Below are positions 9,864 through 62,938 of a stretch of DNA of 64,000 nucleotides, piece after piece; positions within the stretch are counted from its first letter, which is position 1; each line of letters starts with the position of its first letter. This stretch comes from Planctomycetaceae bacterium (GTDB lineage Bacteria; Planctomycetota; Planctomycetia; Pirellulales; UBA1268), in assembly GCA_040376455.1 (NCBI GenBank), contig JBEIQP010000001.1, positions 15-64,014 on the forward strand, read 5' to 3'. Below the pieces are notes generated by a model. The model was not told where the DNA came from. It saw only the letters and a list, made by a program, of their open reading frames with translations, and made no database searches. Both the position numbers and the translations under genes were made by a program.

Positions 9864-12353
9864 ATGGTTTCCATCGGTCCTGCCGAACTCGTTTCGCTCG
9901 TCGTCGCCTGGCTCTGCTCACCGGGCCTGCTCGGGCTGCCGCTCTCGGTGCCGCCGCTGCCGCCCGACCCCGTGATCGAGCGGGCCGCGGCCGACGAGTG
10001 CCTGTTTCACTTCGCCACGGCGGGCGTGGCCGCGGCCTCGGGCGACGCGCAGAACCTCACCGAACGGATGCTCGCCGATCCGGAGATGCGGGATTTCCTG
10101 GCCGCCCTCGCCGCGCAGATCAGCGGCGCCGCCCGGCAGGCCTCGGCGGCGCCGCCGGAGACGAAGGCCGCGGTCACCACGCTGGCCGCGGCGCTGCTGA
10201 CGCGACCGCTCGCCCTCTCGATCGATCAGGTGCGGATGCGACCGGACGGCGATCCGCCGGCAGTGGTGGCGTCGCTGGCGATCCGCGTCGGCGACGCAGG
10301 GCCCCAGATCGCGGCGGCGATGGAGCGGCTGCTGACACCCGTCTGGGAGGAGTATTCGGCGACCATCGCGCCGGGCATCACGCATGCCGCCGAGCCGGAG
10401 GAAATCCGGATCGGGGGCGGCCGGTGGCGGCGGTCGCCGCTGAGGTTCATGGGCCCGCTCTCCTGGGGTCTCAACGACGGGACCTACGTCGTCGCGGTCG
10501 GGCCTGGGGCCCTCGAGTCGCTCGTGGCGCGGATCAACGACGCCGACCGCACGGCCCCGGCGTGGAAGGTCGCTCTCGAGAAGCGGATGCCGGTGACGCG
10601 GCGGAGTACGCTCACCTATCTCGACGCCGGCGAGTGCGTGCGGATCGTCTCGGGGCTCGACGCCCCCGACCGTGAGCACTTCCTGGCGTTTCTCGCCGCG
10701 ACCGGCATCGCGAAGCTGGCGTCGGCCGGCGCGGTCACGGGGATGACGGCCGACGGCGTATCGTCCACGCTGTGGCTCGGTTTCGACGGTGCTCCCGGCG
10801 GCCTGTTCGCCAAGCCCGCCAGCGGCATCGGGCCGCGCGAGCTCGGCCGCGTGCCGGCCGACGCGCTCTTGGCCCAGTCGTGGTCGCTCGACCTCTCGAA
10901 GACGCTCGCCGCCGGGCTGGCGGCCGTGGCGGCGGCGAATCCTCGCGCCGCGGAGGAGTTTCGCGCGGGCCTCGAGCAGGTCCGGGCGGTCGCGGGGATC
11001 GACATCGACCGGCACCTGCTCGCGCCCCTGGGCCCGGACTGGACCGTGTTCTCGCTGCCGGCGCCGGGGGCGATGCTTCCGAACCTCGCGATCATCGCCG
11101 GCGTTCGCGACCGGCCCACGTTCGCGCAGACCCACCAGGCGTTGCTCGGCGTCCTCCGCACCGCCGGCGCCACGGACGACGTGCAGTTCGCCGTCCGCGA
11201 GATTCCCTACCGCGGCCAGACGCTGTTCTGCCTCGAGACCTCGGGCGCGGGCATGGCGATTCCGGTCACGCCCACCTGGTGCCTCACCGACGACAGCCTC
11301 GTGATCACGCTCTCGCCGCAACTCATGAAGACGCTCCTGGCACGCGACGGGGCCGACGGCGGCCTCGGGACGGTGGCCGAGGTCCGCGAGGCCGTCGCCG
11401 CCGGCGAGCCCACGCTCGTCGGCGTGATCGACCCCGTGAGCCTCGTCGGGACGCTGTGCGGGCTCTACGAGATGGCCGTGCCGATGGCGCGGAGCGTGCT
11501 CGGTCAGCAGCGGGTCGCGATCGATCTTCCCCATCTGCCGCCCGCCTCCGCGATCATGCCCTTCGTGCGGCCGAGCGTGAGCGTGGTGCGGCACGAGGCC
11601 GACGGGATCTTCGTGCGATCCACGGGCTCGGTCCCCCTCGGGCCGCTCACGTCGGGCGGCGGGGTGCTCGGCGTCTCGCCCGCGTCGCTGCCGGTGCTCG
11701 TCGGACTCCTGCTGCCCGCCGTGCAGAGCGCCCGCGAGGCAGCCCGCCGAACGCAGGCGATGAACAACATGCGGCAGGTCGTGCTCGCGATCCACCAGTA
11801 CGAGGCGGCCGAGCGCCGCCTGCCGGCGCAGGCCATCTGCGACGCTGCGGGCAAGCCGCTCCTGAGTTGGCGCGTCGCGATCCTTCCCTACATCGGCCAA
11901 GCCGACCTCCACAGGCAGTTTCACCTCGACGAGCCGTGGGACAGCGAGCACAACCGGAAGCTCATCCCGCTGATGCCGGCCGTGCTCTCGGATCCGACCG
12001 CCACGCCCGAGCGGATCGGCGCGGGGCTGACGACGCTGCAGGTGCTCACGGGCCCGGACACGCCCTTCCGCGAGCCCGCGAAGCCGCTCACCTTCGCCCA
12101 TATCTCCGACGGGATGAGCAACACGCTGGCCGTGGTCGAGGTGGCCCCCGACAACGCGGTTCCCTGGACGAAGCCCGAGGACCACGCCTTCGATCCCAAG
12201 CGGCCGCTCGACGGCATCGGCCATCCGCAGCGGCCCGGCGGCGAGTTCCTCGGCGCGATGTTCGACGGCAGCGTCCGCACCTTCACGCCCGACCCCGCAG
12301 TCTTCAAGGCGATCGTCACGCCCTCGGGCGACGAGCCCTGCAGGCTCGACTGA
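9864..12353 (+). CDS. Large (829 aa) protein with an unknown ~600-aa N-terminal region and a C-terminal DUF1559-like domain
   Basis: From about residue 615 it reads LLLPAVQSAREAARRTQAMNNMRQVVLAIHQY...GKPLLSWRVAILPYIGQ...FHLDEPWDSEHN...FDGSVR, which matches the DUF1559 body. No GFTLVELLVV prepilin leader precedes it. Confidence 0.7.
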   Translation: MVSIGPAELVSLVVAWLCSPGLLGLPLSVPPLPPDPVIERAAADECLFHFATAGVAAASGDAQNLTERMLADPEMRDFLAALAAQISGAARQASAAPPETKAAVTTLAAALLTRPLALSIDQVRMRPDGDPPAVVASLAIRVGDAGPQIAAAMERLLTPVWEEYSATIAPGITHAAEPEEIRIGGGRWRRSPLRFMGPLSWGLNDGTYVVAVGPGALESLVARINDADRTAPAWKVALEKRMPVTRRSTLTYLDAGECVRIVSGLDAPDREHFLAFLAATGIAKLASAGAVTGMTADGVSSTLWLGFDGAPGGLFAKPASGIGPRELGRVPADALLAQSWSLDLSKTLAAGLAAVAAANPRAAEEFRAGLEQVRAVAGIDIDRHLLAPLGPDWTVFSLPAPGAMLPNLAIIAGVRDRPTFAQTHQALLGVLRTAGATDDVQFAVREIPYRGQTLFCLETSGAGMAIPVTPTWCLTDDSLVITLSPQLMKTLLARDGADGGLGTVAEVREAVAAGEPTLVGVIDPVSLVGTLCGLYEMAVPMARSVLGQQRVAIDLPHLPPASAIMPFVRPSVSVVRHEADGIFVRSTGSVPLGPLTSGGGVLGVSPASLPVLVGLLLPAVQSAREAARRTQAMNNMRQVVLAIHQYEAAERRLPAQAICDAAGKPLLSWRVAILPYIGQADLHRQFHLDEPWDSEHNRKLIPLMPAVLSDPTATPERIGAGLTTLQVLTGPDTPFREPAKPLTFAHISDGMSNTLAVVEVAPDNAVPWTKPEDHAFDPKRPLDGIGHPQRPGGEFLGAMFDGSVRTFTPDPAVFKAIVTPSGDEPCRLD

Positions 12354-41985: not shown

Positions 41986-43155
41986 ATGCCATCCGGTTCC
42001 ACGCTCTATCTCGACCACGCCGCCACGACGCCCGTGCGGCCCGAGGTCGCCGAGGCGATCGCCCACGCCCAGGCCTCGGCCTGGGCCAATCCCTCGAGCC
42101 CGCATGCCGCCGGCCGGCAGGCCAAGCGGCTGCTGGAAGACGCCCGCGAGCGGATGCTCGCGTTGCTCGGCGGCCGCGCCACCGGCACCGCGCGGGATCG
42201 ACTGGTCTTCACGAGCGGCGCGACGGAAGCCAATCGGCTCGCGATCCTCGGCCTGGCGGGCACGTCGCGCGGCAGCATCGCCCTCTCCGCGCGGGAGCAT
42301 GCCGGAGTGACCGCCGCCGCGGACGAACTGGCAGCCCGGGGCTGGCAGCTCCTGCGGATGCCGCTGGACGGGTCGGGGCGGATCGACCCCGCATGGAGTT
42401 GGCCCGCGACCGCGGCCTCCCCGCAGGTGTTGGCCTGCACGCTCGTCTGCGGCCAGACGGGGACGACCTTCGATCCGACACCCGTGGCCGGGGGCACGTC
42501 GACCGCGCCCCTCGTGCATGCCGATGCCACGCAGGCGATCCTCTGCGACCACGGGCCATTCGCCGCCCGCGGCGTGGCGACGCTCGCCCTGGCGCCGCAC
42601 AAGTTCGAAGGCCCCCGCGGCATCGGGGCGCTCCTGATCCGGCACGACGTGCACCTCGCGGCCGTCGTGCCGGGAACGCAGGAGGGGGGCCTGCGGGGCG
42701 GCACGGAGGCGGTGCCGCTGGCCGTGGGATTCGCGCGGGCCTTGGAGTTGGCCGTGGCGGAGCGGCAGGCCGTGGCCGCCCGGATCGCCGCGCTGCGGGA
42801 CCGCTTCGAGGCCGCGATCCTCGCCGCGGCCCGCGACACAGGCCGGGTGGGAATCGTCCTCGGCGCCGGGGCCGACCGCGCGCCGCACGTCGCGACGGTC
42901 GCGTTTCCCGGTTTCGATCGCCAGGCCTTCGTGATGGCGGCGGATCTCGCCGGTGTCTGCTGCGCCACGGGCACCGCGTGCGCGAGCGGTTCGAGCGTGC
43001 CGGCGCCGGCGATCCAGGCCATGCGGCTTCCCGCACCCGTCGCGGAGGCCGCGGTTCGATTCAGCTTCGGTCGCACGACGACCGAGGCCGACGTCGAGGC
43101 CGCGGTGGCGCGGCTGCGGGGCGTGCTCGCGGGCCGCCCGGACCGGTCGCGGTGA
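41986..43155 (+). CDS. Cysteine desulfurase (class V aminotransferase, IscS/NifS-like)
   Basis: LYLDHAATTP, NPSSPHAAG, FTSGATEAN, LAPHKFEGPRGIGAL (PLP Lys), CATGTACASGS (active-site Cys region). Confidence 0.85.
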   Translation: MPSGSTLYLDHAATTPVRPEVAEAIAHAQASAWANPSSPHAAGRQAKRLLEDARERMLALLGGRATGTARDRLVFTSGATEANRLAILGLAGTSRGSIALSAREHAGVTAAADELAARGWQLLRMPLDGSGRIDPAWSWPATAASPQVLACTLVCGQTGTTFDPTPVAGGTSTAPLVHADATQAILCDHGPFAARGVATLALAPHKFEGPRGIGALLIRHDVHLAAVVPGTQEGGLRGGTEAVPLAVGFARALELAVAERQAVAARIAALRDRFEAAILAAARDTGRVGIVLGAGADRAPHVATVAFPGFDRQAFVMAADLAGVCCATGTACASGSSVPAPAIQAMRLPAPVAEAAVRFSFGRTTTEADVEAAVARLRGVLAGRPDRSR

Positions 43156-57863: not shown

Positions 57864-58982
57864 TCAGTACCAGATCCCGGCCCGCACCAGGAACGTGTCG
57901 CTCGGACGGTAGTCGGCCGTCTCGGTGATGTAGTACTCGACCAATCGACCCGTCACCCAGCCCGCCTCCACCCGCCAGCTCGCGCCGAGATCGGCCGGCC
58001 TTCGTTCCCAGCCGGCCAGGAGCCGGTAGTCGTGGTAGACGACCACGTCGTTCGCGCCGCTGTCGCGGCGGACGGCCCACTGGTTGCCCCCGAACTCGCC
58101 GGCCAGGTAGACCCACTGCGCAGCCCGGTCGCTCTCCGCCACCCGCCATGCGAGCCGGGGCCGCGGAAAGATGATTTCGAACCGGCGGTCATCGGATGGC
58201 GTCCACACGATGCCGCCCGCCGGGAGGATGTTGACGTCGTAGCGGTCGAGGTAGATCACGCCCGCCACCACGCGGAGGTCCGCGGTGGCTTCCCAGGCGC
58301 CGAAGCCGTGGCCGGTGATCCGAAACGCCTGCGGCGTGTCGTTGACGAAATCGCTGTACCAGCCCGGCGCCACGGCCAGATCGACGCCGTATCGGCTGCC
58401 GATCTTCCGCATCCAGCGGGCCTGCAGCCACGACTCGTAGAGTTGCGCCGGCAGGCCGGGATCCATGGGGCCGGCCACCTCGTCGATGAAGGTGGTGCCG
58501 AATCCCGGGGTGACCAGCAGCGGTGAATCGACCGTCGGCGCCGGCATGCCGATCGTGAGGCTCGCGTCGAGCGTCGTGAGCCCCAGGCCGTTCGCGCCGA
58601 ACCGGGGCAGCTCCGTCATCGTGACGATCGCCTGCTGGAGCGCGCCGGGCTTTGCTCCCGGAGGCAGTTTGCGGCCCGCCGGGGGTTCGAACTCCTGGCG
58701 CGGCTGGCCCGGCGGCGCCACGTCGTCGGGCAGGAGCGGTTCCGTGAGATCCTGCGGGTCGCCGAGCGCCGCCAGGCGGATCCGCTGGAAGAAGCCGTCA
58801 TCGACGGGGGGCAGGGGCTTGATCTCGAGCCGCTGCTGCACGTCGGGGCGGGCCAGGGGCGGCGGTGGATCGCGATCGGCGGCGGCGACGTGGGCGGCGG
58901 CCAGGACGACGAGCGCCACGCCCGCGAGGCCCTGGCGGAGCGCCCGCGGGCAATCGTTCCGTGGCTGGGAGACGGGCGTCAT
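57864..58982 (-). CDS. Putative outer-membrane beta-barrel protein (paralog 1)
   Basis: Signal-like LRQGLAGVALVVLAAAHVAAA and a C-terminal ...FLVRAGIWY aromatic terminus. Shares LLVTPGFG, VIYLDRY, LPAGGIVWTP and RFEIIFP blocks with the neighbouring gene. Confidence 0.65.
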   Translation of the reverse strand: MTPVSQPRNDCPRALRQGLAGVALVVLAAAHVAAADRDPPPPLARPDVQQRLEIKPLPPVDDGFFQRIRLAALGDPQDLTEPLLPDDVAPPGQPRQEFEPPAGRKLPPGAKPGALQQAIVTMTELPRFGANGLGLTTLDASLTIGMPAPTVDSPLLVTPGFGTTFIDEVAGPMDPGLPAQLYESWLQARWMRKIGSRYGVDLAVAPGWYSDFVNDTPQAFRITGHGFGAWEATADLRVVAGVIYLDRYDVNILPAGGIVWTPSDDRRFEIIFPRPRLAWRVAESDRAAQWVYLAGEFGGNQWAVRRDSGANDVVVYHDYRLLAGWERRPADLGASWRVEAGWVTGRLVEYYITETADYRPSDTFLVRAGIWY

Positions 58983-59019
58983 GAGTCGATCGCCTGCCGG
59001 GGAATCTCCCCGCTTCCGA

Positions 59020-60204
59020 TCAGTAGGCAAGGCCGAGGCGGAACATGATCGTTTCCGGCAGATCTTGGTACTGCGGCGGGCCGTCCACATAGAACAGTTG
59101 CCGTGCGAAGACGTAGCCCACCTCCATGTTGCCGCTCAGGCCGCGGGTGGCGTTGGGCACGAACTCGGTCCCCAGGCAGATGCGGATGTCGTTGTAGTCG
59201 AAGGGGGAGATGCCGTTGTAGGCCGGCGTGTTGCGGCGGAACGTCCAGGCACCGCCGCCGTACTCGCCCGAAAGGTATCCCCACCACGAATGCCTGGCCG
59301 TGTTGGTCAGCCGGATCGACGCCTTGGGCGCGGGGAAGAAGATGTCGTAGCGCTGGTTGGCGTTGGGCGTCCAGACCATGCCCAGGGCCGGCAGCAGCTT
59401 CACCAGATTGCGGTCGAGGTAGATGATGCCGGCCTTGGCCTGCACGGTCGGCGTCAGTTGGAGCGTCCCGATCGCGCGGCCCATGATGCGCCAGCTCTGC
59501 CAGACCAACACGTCCCAGTTGGTGTAGATGCCAACGCGGACGCCCAGTTCGGCGCCGAAGATGGGCGTGAACTGCGGATTCCATGCCGTGTCGAGGAACA
59601 CGTCGTAGGTGTTCGGCGGCAGGTCGGCGAGCATGCTGTCGGTCGTCTCGGGGCCGTCCCAGAGCTGCAGGCCGAAGCCGGGCGTGATCAGGAGCGGCGC
59701 GTGGTTCAGGTTGGCGGGCGAGTTGTGAAAGAACGGCAGGGCGAAGGTCGCCGTGGTGTCGAGTTCGTTGACGCCGACCCGCGTGCCCTCGCCGTCGCCG
59801 AGCAGGTAGGCCCAGCTGCCGCGGGCGCCCTGATAGACGTGCATCGTCTGCTGGTAAGTCTGTTGAAACGTCGCGCCCTGCGCCGGGTAGGAGGCCGGCG
59901 CGATGCCTTGCGGCGAAACGAGGGACGGGGCGGCGGGGGAATAGCCCGGATAGCCGGGCTGGCCCCCGATCGCCGACGGCGCCCAGGTCGATGGCGGCGG
60001 CGCGGCCGGGGACGGAAACACCTGCGCGGCCTGTGAACCGTAGGCGTCCCAGGTGGGGGGCGGCGGCGCGAGCGCGGGTGCCTGCGCGAGCCGATCGAGC
60101 GACGACGCGGCGGGCGGAGGCAGTTGCACCGTCTGCGCGCCGGCCCACCGGGCTCCGGAGAGGAGTCCGAGCAGGACGAGCAACGGTGCGGTCCACCTCC
60201 GCAT
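59020..60204 (-). CDS. Putative outer-membrane beta-barrel protein (paralog 2)
   Basis: Signal MRRWTAPLLVLLGLLSGARWAGAQ (alternative ATG at 60231) and C-terminal FRLGLAY. Shares LLITPGFG, IIYLDRN, LPALGMVWTP and RYDIFFP blocks. Confidence 0.65.
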   Translation of the reverse strand: MRRWTAPLLVLLGLLSGARWAGAQTVQLPPPAASSLDRLAQAPALAPPPPTWDAYGSQAAQVFPSPAAPPPSTWAPSAIGGQPGYPGYSPAAPSLVSPQGIAPASYPAQGATFQQTYQQTMHVYQGARGSWAYLLGDGEGTRVGVNELDTTATFALPFFHNSPANLNHAPLLITPGFGLQLWDGPETTDSMLADLPPNTYDVFLDTAWNPQFTPIFGAELGVRVGIYTNWDVLVWQSWRIMGRAIGTLQLTPTVQAKAGIIYLDRNLVKLLPALGMVWTPNANQRYDIFFPAPKASIRLTNTARHSWWGYLSGEYGGGAWTFRRNTPAYNGISPFDYNDIRICLGTEFVPNATRGLSGNMEVGYVFARQLFYVDGPPQYQDLPETIMFRLGLAY

Positions 60205-60412
60205 GACGGGCACGCTCCGGCAGTGGTCCACGCGGGTCGCAGGGAGGCGCGGCCGGCTGGAAAGGTCGTGGGTGTCGGAAACCGGGGTGGAGGGGGTACC
60301 GCGCGGCGGCGGACAGGGTCAAGGTCGCACCCCTCCGCCGCACCCGAGTCCGCGGCGGTAGAATCGCGCCCCCTGCGCGATCGCCCGAAATTGCCCCGTC
60401 ACCGTCGGTTCC

Positions 60413-61243
60413 ATGACACCCAGCCCGCCGCATCCTGCCCCGGTCCCGGACCCGATCGACGTCGGCGCGCTCGTCGCGGTGGGCGGATTCGGCTCCTGCG
60501 AGCATCTGCCGGAGGTCGATTCGACGATGGTTCGGGCGCGGGCGATCGCCGCCGATCCCGCGGCGCGGCTGCCGGCGGCGGTCGTGGCGGACGTGCAGAC
60601 GGCCGGACAGGGCCGCCGTGGAGCGCGGTGGTGGCAGCCCCCCGGCAGCCTGACGGTGAGCATCGTGCTTGATCCCGGCTGGGCGGCCGGGGCGGAGCCC
60701 ACCGCGCCGCCCGCGTGGTCCTTGGCGTGTGGCGTGGCGGTGGCGGAGACGCTCCGGGCGCTCGAGCCGGCCGTGGAAGCGGTCGTGCGGTGGCCGAACG
60801 ACGTCGAGGCGGGCGGGCGGAAGCTGGCCGGCATCCTCGTGGAACGCGGGGTCGGTGGCCGGCTCGTGATCGGCATCGGCGTCAACACGACCGGCAGCGC
60901 CACCGACGCGCCGGCGGCCATCGCGCATCGGATCGCCACGCTCCCCGACCTCACCGGCAGGCCGCTTGGCCGCGGGCGGCTCCTTGCCGACCTGCTGCCC
61001 CGGTTGCGCGCGTTGCTCGGGGGCATGGCGGAGGATCCGGGAGTGCTCGCCGCGCGGTATCGGCCGCTCTGCGGTCTCGACGGCCATACAGTGACCGTGC
61101 ATCAGGGCACGCGGCGGCAGGTCGGTCTCTGCCGTGGGATCGACGCCTCAGGCGCGCTCGTGCTCGACACCGAAGCCGGCCGGCTGCACCTCGCGACGGG
61201 CAGTCTCACCGATCCGGCAGACGTGTGGCGGGGCGACGGCTGA
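60413..61243 (+). CDS. birA: Biotin--[acetyl-CoA-carboxylase] ligase
   Basis: VQTAGQGRRGARWWQPPGSL (GRGRxGRxW-type motif), VRWPNDV, GRKLAGILVE, IGIGVN. Confidence 0.85.
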   Translation: MTPSPPHPAPVPDPIDVGALVAVGGFGSCEHLPEVDSTMVRARAIAADPAARLPAAVVADVQTAGQGRRGARWWQPPGSLTVSIVLDPGWAAGAEPTAPPAWSLACGVAVAETLRALEPAVEAVVRWPNDVEAGGRKLAGILVERGVGGRLVIGIGVNTTGSATDAPAAIAHRIATLPDLTGRPLGRGRLLADLLPRLRALLGGMAEDPGVLAARYRPLCGLDGHTVTVHQGTRRQVGLCRGIDASGALVLDTEAGRLHLATGSLTDPADVWRGDG

Positions 61244-62309
61244 CCGCGCGGCCGCGGGCTGCCCGCGGCGCGAATACGCAGACCTCGCGGCCGCCGGTCG
61301 AGAGCTGCCGCGCCTGGGGCGCGTAGCCCCAGCCGCGAAAGCGCTCGAGCCATTCCGGCAGCGCCGCGGCCCGCGACCATTCGGGCAGTTTCAAGGTCGC
61401 GATGATGCCCGCGGGATTCGCCGCCGGCGCGGTCACGATCCGCTCGATCGCAGCCAGGGTGCTCGTGGGATCGATGTTCATGTCGGACACGATCCAATCG
61501 AAGCCGCGCAGCAGCCGGAGCTTCACATCGCGGCTCCGCATCCGCCACTGCTCGAACCGCGGATGCGCGGCGACCCGGTCGTCGACGAGCGCCGGATCGA
61601 TCCCCACCACGGAGAGCCCGGCTTCCAGGAGCCGCTGGCACGAGCCGCCTGGCGACGCGCCGAGCTCGCACGCCCGCTGGCCCGAGCGCAGCGGGATGTC
61701 GAAGGTCGCGATCGCCTCGTCGAGTTTCAGCCAGGCCCGCGAGACCTTGTCGTCCGGCAGCGTGCGGGAATAGACGCCGCCCGGCCACGTGCTCGGCGCC
61801 GCGGCCGCGCGATGCCATCCCACCCAGCAGCGGTCCGGGGAATCGACGATGCAGTCGAGCACCAGGTCGCCGGGCCGCGCCACCGGATCGAGATCCGGCG
61901 GCAGCCCCCAGGCGGCGAGCAGCAGCGCTCTGAGTTCAGCCACGTCGGACTCGGTCCGCGCGTCCCGTTTCCAGACGTGGACGTTGCCCCACGCCGCGCG
62001 ACCCGCCAGGTCGCGGATCGCGGCCGCGCGATCGGTCGGGGTCGCGGCCTGAATCTGCCCGAGCGAGCGAATGACGGCGCGGGCGAAGACCAGGTCGGGG
62101 GCGAAGTCGTCGGGAGGATCGAAGCCCTCGTCGAGGCGAAACGTCACCACTCCGCGCCGCCAGACGGCCTGCCGGACGACCGGTAGCACCTCCCGTTGCC
62201 GGGCCGCGAGCTGCTCCTCCGCGCCGGGATGGCAGGCTGCGAGCAGGAATTGGCCGCGAACGGCGGGGGCGGGCGGACGGGGTGGTTCGGCGGCGGACAT
62301 CGGTTCCAT
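61206..62309 (-). CDS. rlmM: RlmM-like 23S rRNA 2'-O-ribose methyltransferase (THUMP-like N-terminus plus FtsJ-like SAM domain)
   Basis: SRAWLKLDEAIATF, ACELGASPGGSCQRLLEAG and WIVSDMN resemble E. coli RlmM (SRSTLKLEEA, DLGACPGGW, VCDM). An Arg-rich C-terminal tail overlaps the birA 3' end by 38 nt. Confidence 0.65.
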   Translation of the reverse strand: MEPMSAAEPPRPPAPAVRGQFLLAACHPGAEEQLAARQREVLPVVRQAVWRRGVVTFRLDEGFDPPDDFAPDLVFARAVIRSLGQIQAATPTDRAAAIRDLAGRAAWGNVHVWKRDARTESDVAELRALLLAAWGLPPDLDPVARPGDLVLDCIVDSPDRCWVGWHRAAAAPSTWPGGVYSRTLPDDKVSRAWLKLDEAIATFDIPLRSGQRACELGASPGGSCQRLLEAGLSVVGIDPALVDDRVAAHPRFEQWRMRSRDVKLRLLRGFDWIVSDMNIDPTSTLAAIERIVTAPAANPAGIIATLKLPEWSRAAALPEWLERFRGWGYAPQARQLSTGGREVCVFAPRAARGRAVSRRPATRLPDR

Positions 62310-62375
62310 GGTACCGAGGAACCGGGGCCGATGATCGGGCCCCGGCCGCCAGATCGGCCCGGGGGCAAAAAATCA

Positions 62376-62409
62376 GGCCGGCCCGGGCGCCCAAGGGCCC
62401 GGGCCGGCC
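62376..62409 (-). terminator. Intrinsic terminator (13-bp GC stem followed by a U6 tract on the minus strand)
   Basis: GGCCGGCCCGGGC / GCCCGGGCCGGCC with an 8-nt loop. On the minus strand it is followed by TGATTTTTTG (62375-62366). Confidence 0.65.
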
Positions 62410-62424
62410 TTTCTCGTCTGAACG

Positions 62425-62597
62425 CTGAACGTCCCGATGCGGTTTCGCCGGAGCGAAAACGGTTCAGGACGAAGGGCAGACCGTCGAAACGGACTGCGGA
62501 ATCCCACGCATGGGATTCCGGGCAAAGCCTTGGCGAAACGACGTTTCGCCGCGTTGGGAATGTTCCCGAAGGGCAAGCCCTTCAACAACCTTCCCAA
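62425..62597 (-). ncRNA. Highly structured RNA segment (six or more consecutive or nested stem-loops) between the micro-ORF and the terminator
   Basis: Stems read from the sequence: 62554-60/62591-97 enclosing 62568-83; 62532-39/62543-50; a perfect 10 bp at 62497-506/62511-20; 62477-83/62490-96; 62442-48/62453-60 enclosed by 62425-30/62462-67. Strand assigned from the terminator U-tract. Confidence 0.4.
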
Positions 62598-62605
62598 CGA
62601 ATGGC

Positions 62606-62668
62606 TCAGCCGTGGCCCTTCTTCTTCTTGGCGACCTTCTTGGCAGCCTTCTTCTTCTTCTTCGCCAT
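62606..62668 (-). CDS. 20-codon lysine-rich micro-ORF MAKKKKKAAKKVAKKKKGHG
   Basis: AAGGAG lies 7 nt upstream of the ATG. 19 of 20 sense codons end in G/C and all 11 Lys codons are AAG. The overlapping 110-codon frame uses GAA for every Glu in the shared stretch. Confidence 0.5.
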   Translation of the reverse strand: MAKKKKKAAKKVAKKKKGHG

Positions 62669-62938
62669 GGATCTGGCTCCTTACCGCGAGCACCCAAACA
62701 CGCATCTCACGGCCTCGCCCCCGGGTGCTCTGGCAAAGGGAGAGGCCGACGTTTCAGCGTCAGACGACCGTGATTTCTCACGGCAATCGAACGTTGATGT
62801 GAGAGTTGTGAAGGATGGCGGCAAAAACTGTCAAGAGAAATTCGGAAAAATTTTCGCGATTTCGCCGGGTGTGACGTCGCGGCGCGGCGGCCGAAGCGAG
62901 CGTTCGATTCGTTCGCGGAACGCGCCGACCGCCATCGA

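Follow-up and report, generated by a model that had tools for sequence, protein, structure and literature searches.

A conserved micro-gene for a lysine-rich peptide, preceded by a covarying pseudoknot, next to rlmM in Planctomycetota

Introduction

In Escherichia coli, rpsO, the gene for ribosomal protein S15 (89 amino acids (aa), with a defined fold), carries in its 5′ untranslated region (UTR) a pseudoknot operator at the ribosome-binding site, and is followed by an intrinsic terminator and then by pnp, which encodes an RNA-processing enzyme and is expressed from its own promoter and by read-through from rpsO. Here we describe a locus of similar layout in a stretch of 64,000 nucleotides (nt) from a Planctomycetaceae bacterium (contig JBEIQP010000001.1; henceforth the window, GC content 70.7%): a conserved minus-strand unit of ~433 nt, present in ~190 Planctomycete genomes or loci, which holds a 20-codon, lysine-rich open reading frame (the micro-ORF) and lies upstream of an rlmM-like gene. 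The product of the latter probably belongs to the 23S rRNA C2498 2′-O-methyltransferase family; C2498 lies at the base of helix H89.

A first-pass annotation of the window had drawn attention to the succession of micro-ORF, hairpins, intrinsic terminator and rlmM, which is both real and conserved, and its description of the stretch held up apart from small corrections. As mechanism it had preferred a ribosome-sensing leader that controls read-through into rlmM and had offered, as an alternative, a separate short transcript that encodes a polycationic micropeptide and is structured in its 3′ part. The former failed the tests that could be run, and the comparative data presented below favour the latter.

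Very small basic proteins with roles in the ribosome or in polyanion binding have been described in other bacteria and beyond. bS22 has 33 aa, bS22 and eL41 consist of 55–65% basic residues, long went unannotated and bind rRNA backbones, and bL37 contacts helix H89 near the peptidyl-transferase centre (PMC10085706). H1-like low-complexity proteins bind polyanions, with Hc2 binding DNA and AlgP found with polyphosphate granules (PMC9239181).

Results

The micro-ORF is a protein-coding gene

Coordinates refer to the minus strand unless marked (+). We compared 192 related Planctomycetota loci (numbered L001–L200), all from uncultured metagenome-assembled genomes (MAGs) or metagenome contigs. The genome sample comprised 80 loci from Planctomycetota MAGs labelled Pirellulales, Planctomycetaceae or Planctomycetia, retrieved by alignment of RlmM homologues, which are merely 53–74% identical across these loci; a second sample, independent of rlmM, comprised at least 120 loci from metagenome contigs scanned with the invariant 3′ block of the unit. 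Owing to their mode of selection, the genome sample is uninformative on rlmM and the metagenome sample on the 3′ block. The intergenic region of ~500 nt was recovered by nhmmer in nearly all loci with enough upstream sequence (E down to 1e-91), from hosts with GC contents of 47 to 75%. Within the unit, an A/T tract, TTGACA, a CACAAC block, a 5′ hairpin, a pseudoknot, AAGGAG and the micro-ORF follow one another in this order, and the part 3′ of the micro-ORF consists of lineage-specific hairpins and then a 45-nt block with a U-tract (Table 1).

The micro-ORF is a real, unannotated protein-coding gene that evolves as a coding sequence. It was found in 177 of the 192 loci and, among the matches listed for the metagenome sample, in 103 of 104 loci with at least 330 nt of upstream sequence; it has 20 codons in 122 loci, with a range of 18–59. 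The 21 distinct 20-codon alleles differ by 33 synonymous vs 12 non-synonymous codon changes, with 36 of 52 base differences at third positions, the stop codon swaps among TGA, TAG and TAA, and nucleotide conservation collapses directly 3′ of the stop. In the window, 11 of the 20 codons starting with the ATG at 62668 are AAG (55% Lys) and 19 end in G or C, exactly as counted in the first-pass annotation, which had placed AAGGAG 7 nt before this ATG; the actual gap is 8 nt. Over all loci the Lys codons are AAG rather than AAA in a ratio of 803:12 (98.5% AAG), hosts of 47% GC included. Runs of AAA are prone to ribosomal slippage, so the preference for AAG is consistent with selection for accurate translation of the peptide.

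The longer peptides are built of AKKKV-/AKKKA-type repeats (for example, MAKKKAAKKKVAKKAAKKKV...AKL) and retain composition (K 56%, A 25%, V 6%, G 5%), not nucleotide sequence. Variants of 45–59 aa, which end in AHG, AKL or AKI and leave the 3′ block unaltered, occur at L039:2796-2939, L068:3625-3777, L082, L142, L144, L165, L188 and others, some in hosts of 47% GC. At L028:1165-1230 the micro-ORF contains an in-frame stop (MAK*QKK...) and AAGGTG replaces AAGGAG, with the remaining unit intact; this copy may be a pseudogene or an assembly error. A divergent unit at L105:1925-2255 (reoriented) opens its ORF with GTG, encodes a K/A/V-rich peptide of 57 aa and has the Shine-Dalgarno sequence TTAGGAGG; the pseudoknot was not detected there, but the 3′ block is preserved in full, 32 nt before the start of rlmM.

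Neither the peptide nor its RNA was found described in our literature searches, and none of eight peptide variants (including ones of 46–58 aa) was present in an exact look-up in a collection of 15 billion proteins. Searches of Pfam, NCBIfam and the PDB with short and long peptides gave sub-threshold compositional matches only, and no match to bL37, bS22 or Thx in NCBIfam, Pfam or the PDB at E up to 10. Long variants, and only these, reached 8.4 bits (E = 2.8) vs a cut-off of 40 with HC2 (PF07382) and 6.8–8.1 bits (E = 3–7) vs a cut-off of 80 with the H1-like family NF038053. They also showed a weak compositional likeness (E = 0.2–1.8) to residues ~982–1043 of 1044 in the valine-tRNA ligase model PRK14900 of NCBIfam.

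An H-type pseudoknot lies next to the ribosome-binding site

Between the promoter region and the micro-ORF, two crossing helices, S1 of 11 bp and S2 of 8 bp with loops of ~8, 2 and 14 nt, form an H-type pseudoknot, a new motif in which both helices are supported by covariation. S2 is the leader stem that the first-pass annotation had pointed out, now recognized as one half of this fold. In an alignment of 64 sequences, 94.5% of the cells of S1 and 99.8% of those of S2 were paired, with compensatory changes at 8/11 and 5/8 pairs respectively; jointly, 96.7% of cells held standard pairs and 13 of the 19 pairs were compensatory. Sliding the partner by 1–3 columns lowered pairing to 37–52%, and none of 500 shuffles reached the observed values. 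The result was replicated on 71 further distinct metagenome sequences (95.7% paired, 13/19 compensatory; S1 94.8%, S2 97.0%; slid controls 38–52%). A profile of the pseudoknot region gave one match per locus and nowhere else, and the pseudoknot is unchanged in relatives with peptides of 45–59 aa. We infer that it probably serves as a translational operator of the micro-ORF.

An invariant mini-hairpin (GCCA/UGGC) that runs from the 3′ end of the Shine-Dalgarno sequence to the AUG is present in 63–64 of the 64 sequences, with zero covariation.

The 3′ end is almost invariant

The 45-nt block AGACGAGAAAGGCCGGCCCGGGCCCTTGGGCGCCCGGGCCGGCCT, an A-tract plus a GC hairpin, is present in a single copy per locus and identical in 65 of 71 genome loci from hosts of 47–75% GC; each of the remaining six has one base changed, never in a compensatory way. 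The GC terminator of the first-pass annotation could be delimited as the hairpin 62410-62375 plus U6, with a stem of 14–16 bp and a folding energy of −39.4 kcal/mol (z = −4.5). A U-tract (at least five T in nine) follows in 167 of the 192 loci, and in one clade it is weakened to GAUUCGUU. The 3′ end has the shape of an intrinsic terminator and is almost invariant, and termination is predicted to occur there. Since an ordinary terminator would drift through G-U and compensatory changes, something apparently recognises the very sequence of the 3′ block. At L151 the hairpin is directly followed by tandem GGCCTGATTTTTGGGCCTGGCCC, such that the 3′ half of the terminator and the T-tract occur at least three times before rlmM.

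Several other roles or pairings considered for this block were discarded. It is not part of an rlmM promoter, as the −10 box of rlmM lies anywhere from 11 to ~350 nt beyond it and the block is invariant regardless. Pairings of 4–6 bp between it and the conserved leader motif GAAACGUCG, sought by eye, were in incompatible registers, and with both sides invariant covariation is uninformative. An 8-nt identity to 23S rRNA (AACGUCGU) has a chance expectation above 1.

The stem-loops between the micro-ORF and the 3′ block behave differently from the pseudoknot. The first-pass annotation had made conservation and covariation of the ORF and stems in relatives a test of its reading; these were found for the ORF and the pseudoknot, whereas the 3′-UTR stems are conserved (16 compensatory pairs) solely in the closest subgroup of 13 sequences and are replaced or shortened elsewhere. 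The perfect 10-bp hairpin that it had listed is real, and the second GC hairpin that it had placed after the terminator folds no better than shuffles (z = −0.8) and is not conserved. Likewise, the duplicated arms exist in the window, yet they are near chance and not kept in relatives: GTTTCGCC occurs 8 times in the window vs 3.4 expected, and at least as many copies arose in 4 of 100 shuffles. The mutually exclusive pairings proposed on the basis of the duplicated GGCGAAAC/GUUUCGCC arms are not conserved in relatives. A 14-bp stem of the window, between the 5′ UTR and the pre-terminator region, was rejected as a conserved closing helix, its 5′ side varying and its 3′ side being fixed. The whole RNA (62800-62360, 441 nt) has a folding energy of −232 kcal/mol, with z = −7.9 vs dinucleotide shuffles.

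A candidate promoter with a non-consensus −10 region

The A/T-rich tract and the perfect TTGACA reported in the first-pass annotation are both present and the −35 hexamer is kept in relatives. Together with the CACAAC block it is retained in ~140 loci, and TTGACA-N16-19-CACAAC occurs 140 times in 1.48 Mb of loci, every time at the micro-ORF unit. A simple sigma-70 scan of the window called no full promoter here, because the −10 region is non-consensus. Transcription would start near 62800. The 5′-proximal hairpin that follows differs by lineage in size and sequence, with GUGA-GCAA-UCAC-type forms or longer insertions in relatives.

The neighbouring rlmM gene and its predicted start

The rlmM-like protein scored above the cut-off for PF01728 (42.6 bits) and reached 70.6 bits vs a cut-off of 176 for NF008734; sources call its homologues RlmM. 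The gene is next downstream of the unit, on the same strand, in 95 of the 97 metagenome loci with at least 500 nt of downstream sequence among the matches listed. The upstream neighbour is less constant, being a gene for myo-inositol-1-phosphate synthase (MIPS) in 37 genome loci. The unit occurs without rlmM at L086 and with an RlmM match on the opposite strand at L098 and L123, and rlmM occurs without the unit at L002.

A TANNNT box, mostly TACGAT, TAGGAT or TACCAT and otherwise TACGCT or TACTAT, lies 6–9 nt before an in-frame ATG or GTG of rlmM in 122 of 159 distinct spacers (~77%), as compared with 2–15 of 159 for seven control box patterns at equal spacing. Such a distance would be expected of a −10-only promoter that gives a leaderless mRNA, a function that we predict from sequence. 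In the window, TACCAT lies 7 nt before the ATG at 62300, so the true start of rlmM is probably this second ATG and not the one at 62309 chosen in the first-pass annotation. The distance from the terminator hairpin to the most downstream candidate start of rlmM has a median of 54 nt and is often 25 nt. In the roughly one quarter of spacers that lack the box, rlmM may depend on read-through.

Table 1. Features of the micro-ORF unit and of the adjacent rlmM-like gene in the window
Feature	Position	Strand	Remarks
A/T-rich tract, UP-element-like	62835..62862	−	32% GC in the 70.7%-GC window; moderate conservation, 64-locus alignment
−35 hexamer TTGACA within conserved block TCTCTTGACAGTTTT	62829..62834	−	Alignments of relatives
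Conserved block CATCCTTCACAAC, non-consensus −10 region (CACAAC invariant)	62805..62817	−	Near-invariant in alignments
5′-proximal hairpin, GNRA-type loop (GAAA)	62763..62788	−	−13.8 kcal/mol, z = −2.0
Conserved motif GAAACGUCG	62747..62755	−	Alignments; final two bases open helix S1
Helix S1, 5′ arm CGGCCUCUCCC	62738..62748	−	Partner 62720-62710
Helix S2, 5′ arm GAGCACCC, within S1 loop	62723..62730	−	Partner 62695-62688
Helix S1, 3′ arm GGGCGAGGCCG	62710..62720	−	Partner 62748-62738
Helix S2, 3′ arm GGGUGCUC	62688..62695	−	Ends 5 nt 5′ of the Shine-Dalgarno sequence
Shine-Dalgarno sequence AAGGAG	62677..62682	−	8 nt before ATG; AAGGAGCC kept in almost all loci
Micro-ORF MAKKKKKAAKKVAKKKKGHG + stop codon; predicted product (M)AKKKKKAAKKVAKKKKGHG	62606..62668	−	Kept in relatives
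3′-UTR stem-loops, lineage-specific	62425..62597	−	Include perfect 10-bp hairpin 62520-62497 (z = −4.0)
Near-invariant 3′ block: CAGACGAGAAA, then GC hairpin AGGCCGGCCCGGGCCCUUGGGCGCCCGGGCCGGCCU	62375..62420	−	Comparison of genome loci
U-tract GAUUUUUUG	62366..62374	−	Completes the predicted intrinsic terminator
TACCAT, −10-like box for rlmM	62308..62313	−	7 nt before ATG 62300
rlmM-like gene, FtsJ-fold, 23S rRNA C2498 2′-O-methyltransferase family	61206..62300	−	Pfam PF01728; neighbour, outside the unit

Other features of the window

TANNNT followed by 6–8 nt and a start codon was also seen before long ORFs at 41986, 10772, 22346, 9181 and 57278 (+), the starts at 41986 and 10772 being the first possible ones of their ORFs; this genome may make frequent use of leaderless mRNAs. 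The rlmM-like gene converges with a birA-like biotin-protein ligase gene (60413-61243, +), with a 3′ overlap of 38 nt (61206-61243), and this pairing is retained in 72 of the 80 genome loci. Farther on, the adjacent ORFs 57864-59090 and 59020-60231 (both −) encode ~405 aa each with similar C-terminal halves (...IYLDR...LPA.G.VWTP...) and may be tandem paralogues; the one of them that was scanned had no Pfam match. A tRNA-Thr (CGT) gene at 11576-11653 (+) is the sole tRNA gene of the window, and no transfer-messenger RNA (by tRNA/tmRNA scan), rRNA or other Rfam family was found within the 64 kb. The Rfam scan, which the first-pass annotation had proposed, returned no match at the gathering score for the whole window, the micro-ORF unit included, and only chance-level matches at E up to 10. 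Viral contigs queried with the 3′ block of the unit gave zero matches, hence nothing points to an origin from a phage or mobile element.

Discussion

We consider it reasonably probable that the unit is a micro-gene complete in itself and strongly transcribed, which encodes a polycationic Lys/Ala peptide and has a pseudoknot operator and a terminator that insulates rlmM. A promoter composed of the A/T tract, the perfect −35 hexamer and the conserved, unusual −10 block would drive an RNA of ~433 nt that encodes the Lys/Ala-rich microprotein, of 20 aa here and 18–59 aa in relatives. The pseudoknot would act on translation, either stabilised by the cationic product itself or gating access of the 30S subunit, and the A-tract, GC hairpin and U-tract would end and stabilise the transcript and insulate rlmM, for which, in most lineages, a separate TANNNT box would yield an mRNA with little or no leader. 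The peptide, which resembles histone-H1 tails and the small polybasic ribosomal proteins bL37, bS22 and eL41, probably binds nucleic acid or another polyanion.

Several points weigh against this proposal. The synonymous sites of the micro-ORF are also unusually conserved, so that a constraint at the RNA level is possible; a plain terminator needs no 45 invariant bases, and the 3′ block therefore probably has a further role. The unit is linked more tightly to rlmM than to the gene upstream, a hint of some functional relation beyond the model, and 37 of the 159 spacers, including those of the long-peptide clade, have no recognisable −10 box, with some spacers only 25–40 nt long. Moreover, we infer the transcript ends from sequence features, as we do the expression level, the binding partner of the peptide and the regulatory role of the pseudoknot.

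In the mechanism that the first-pass annotation preferred, the behaviour of ribosomes on the poly-Lys leader would remodel the hairpins and thereby decide the fate of the terminator before rlmM, a scheme akin to the leaders of erm, trp or his. The signal could be stalling, the supply of Lys-tRNA or ribosomes lacking Cm2498. The layout invites such a reading, with a short ORF, hairpins and an intrinsic terminator ahead of an rRNA methyltransferase gene, as do the very tight synteny with rlmM and the selection acting on the micro-ORF. We nevertheless judge it highly improbable. Minimum-energy folds of 63 relatives revealed no consistent long-range helix partner, no mutually exclusive pairing is conserved, and the duplicated arms that had suggested one are specific to the window. 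In a search over 138 distinct transcripts, upstream RNA could pair with the 5′ arm of the terminator at −21.25 kcal/mol, no better than shuffles (−21.44 kcal/mol), the best sites being scattered 32–275 nt upstream and the arms of the terminator pairing with each other at −34 kcal/mol. In place of a fixed short coupling distance, ~120 to 312 nt lie between the ORF start and the 3′ block, with lineage-specific hairpins in this interval, and the length of the peptide varies as well. The downstream gene, as far as its sequence tells, has its own −10 box in ~77% of spacers, and a 130-nt 5′ UTR with a covarying pseudoknot is atypical for leader-peptide attenuators. On these grounds the unit does not look like a switch that controls rlmM.

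A simpler form of coupling, fairly unlikely in our estimate, would be an operon with an internal leaky terminator, in which one strong promoter serves both micro-ORF and rlmM, the invariant hairpin and U-tract halt the majority of transcripts, and a small, fixed fraction of read-through sets a high ratio of peptide to RlmM without any sensing. It would account for the same-strand position of rlmM in nearly all the metagenome loci listed, for the often short space (25–40 nt) between hairpin and start codon, for the spacers without TANNNT (among them those of the long-peptide loci L082, L105, L144 and L165) and for the weakened U-tract of one clade; yet read-through is unneeded in the majority of lineages, where a −10-like box lies at leaderless spacing, the hairpin plus U6 is a very strong terminator (−39 kcal/mol), and the unit and rlmM each occur alone. 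That the RNA itself might be the active product, as a regulatory RNA or a scaffold of an RNA-protein particle, with pseudoknot and 3′ block at work and the ORF secondary or part of a dual function, appears very unlikely to us, even though the peptide is no better conserved than the RNA elements, the pseudoknot persists beside peptides of 45–59 aa, the overall fold is stable (z = −7.9) and the single-stranded CAGACGAGAAA before the terminator hairpin resembles the seed and terminator of small regulatory RNAs. Against it stand the clear protein-level selection on the ORF, its perfect Shine-Dalgarno sequence and interchanging stops, the retention at L105 of ORF and 3′ block without the pseudoknot, and the lack of an Rfam match or of a known target or partner. 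A further possibility, which we regard as quite unlikely, is that the peptide is an analogue of bL37 or eL41, a planctomycete microprotein that binds rRNA or the ribosome and has so far escaped notice, with binding sites in its own mRNA. The pseudoknot, the invariant 3′ hairpin or both would then bind the peptide and provide feedback in the style of the S15 operator or of lambda N/boxB, and the location beside rlmM would reflect joint action at H89 and the peptidyl-transferase centre of 23S rRNA.

The micro-gene that we favour is missed by gene callers, though it is among the most conserved stretches of its host genomes, and it adds a bacterial microprotein family made of nearly only Lys and Ala. 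Its hosts are common in lakes, among them MAGs from Lake Mendota and Swiss lakes, with some relatives being marine. The pseudoknot motif, with its strong covariation support, is suited to an Rfam-type model, and a terminator-shaped element that is near-invariant over genomes of 47–75% GC points to a function beyond termination. The locus thereby offers testable hypotheses on polycation homeostasis, on nucleoid or ribosome microproteins and on leaderless expression in Planctomycetes.

The trp, his, ermC and ermK attenuators share with this locus a short ORF, stem-loops and a terminator, and the erm genes likewise encode rRNA methyltransferases; unlike them, the unit has neither alternative terminator/antiterminator pairing nor tight spacing between the ORF and a first hairpin, and rlmM mostly has its own −10 box. 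Low-complexity K/A(/V/P) repeats of variable number relate the peptide to Chlamydia Hc2, Pseudomonas AlgP and Burkholderia H1-like proteins, and Chlamydiae and Planctomycetes belong to the same Planctomycetes-Verrucomicrobia-Chlamydiae (PVC) superphylum, but the usual form here has only 20 aa, much less than Hc2 or AlgP, and conserved ends (MAKKKKK and GHG), and the match is compositional only. As in bL37, bS22, eL41 and Thx, the product is very short and polybasic, in this case 20 aa with 55% Lys and encoded beside a probable C2498 methyltransferase gene. No sequence relationship to these proteins was found in NCBIfam, Pfam or the PDB, however, its basic residues are Lys only as opposed to mixed Arg/Lys, and a length of 18–59 aa reached by repeat expansion would be unusual for a protein that fills a fixed rRNA pocket. 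As for rpsO, although neither protein nor RNA homology nor an Rfam leader match connects the two loci and binding of the peptide to the pseudoknot is hypothetical here, both present the same succession of a pseudoknot, a gene for a small basic protein, a terminator and then the gene for an RNA enzyme.

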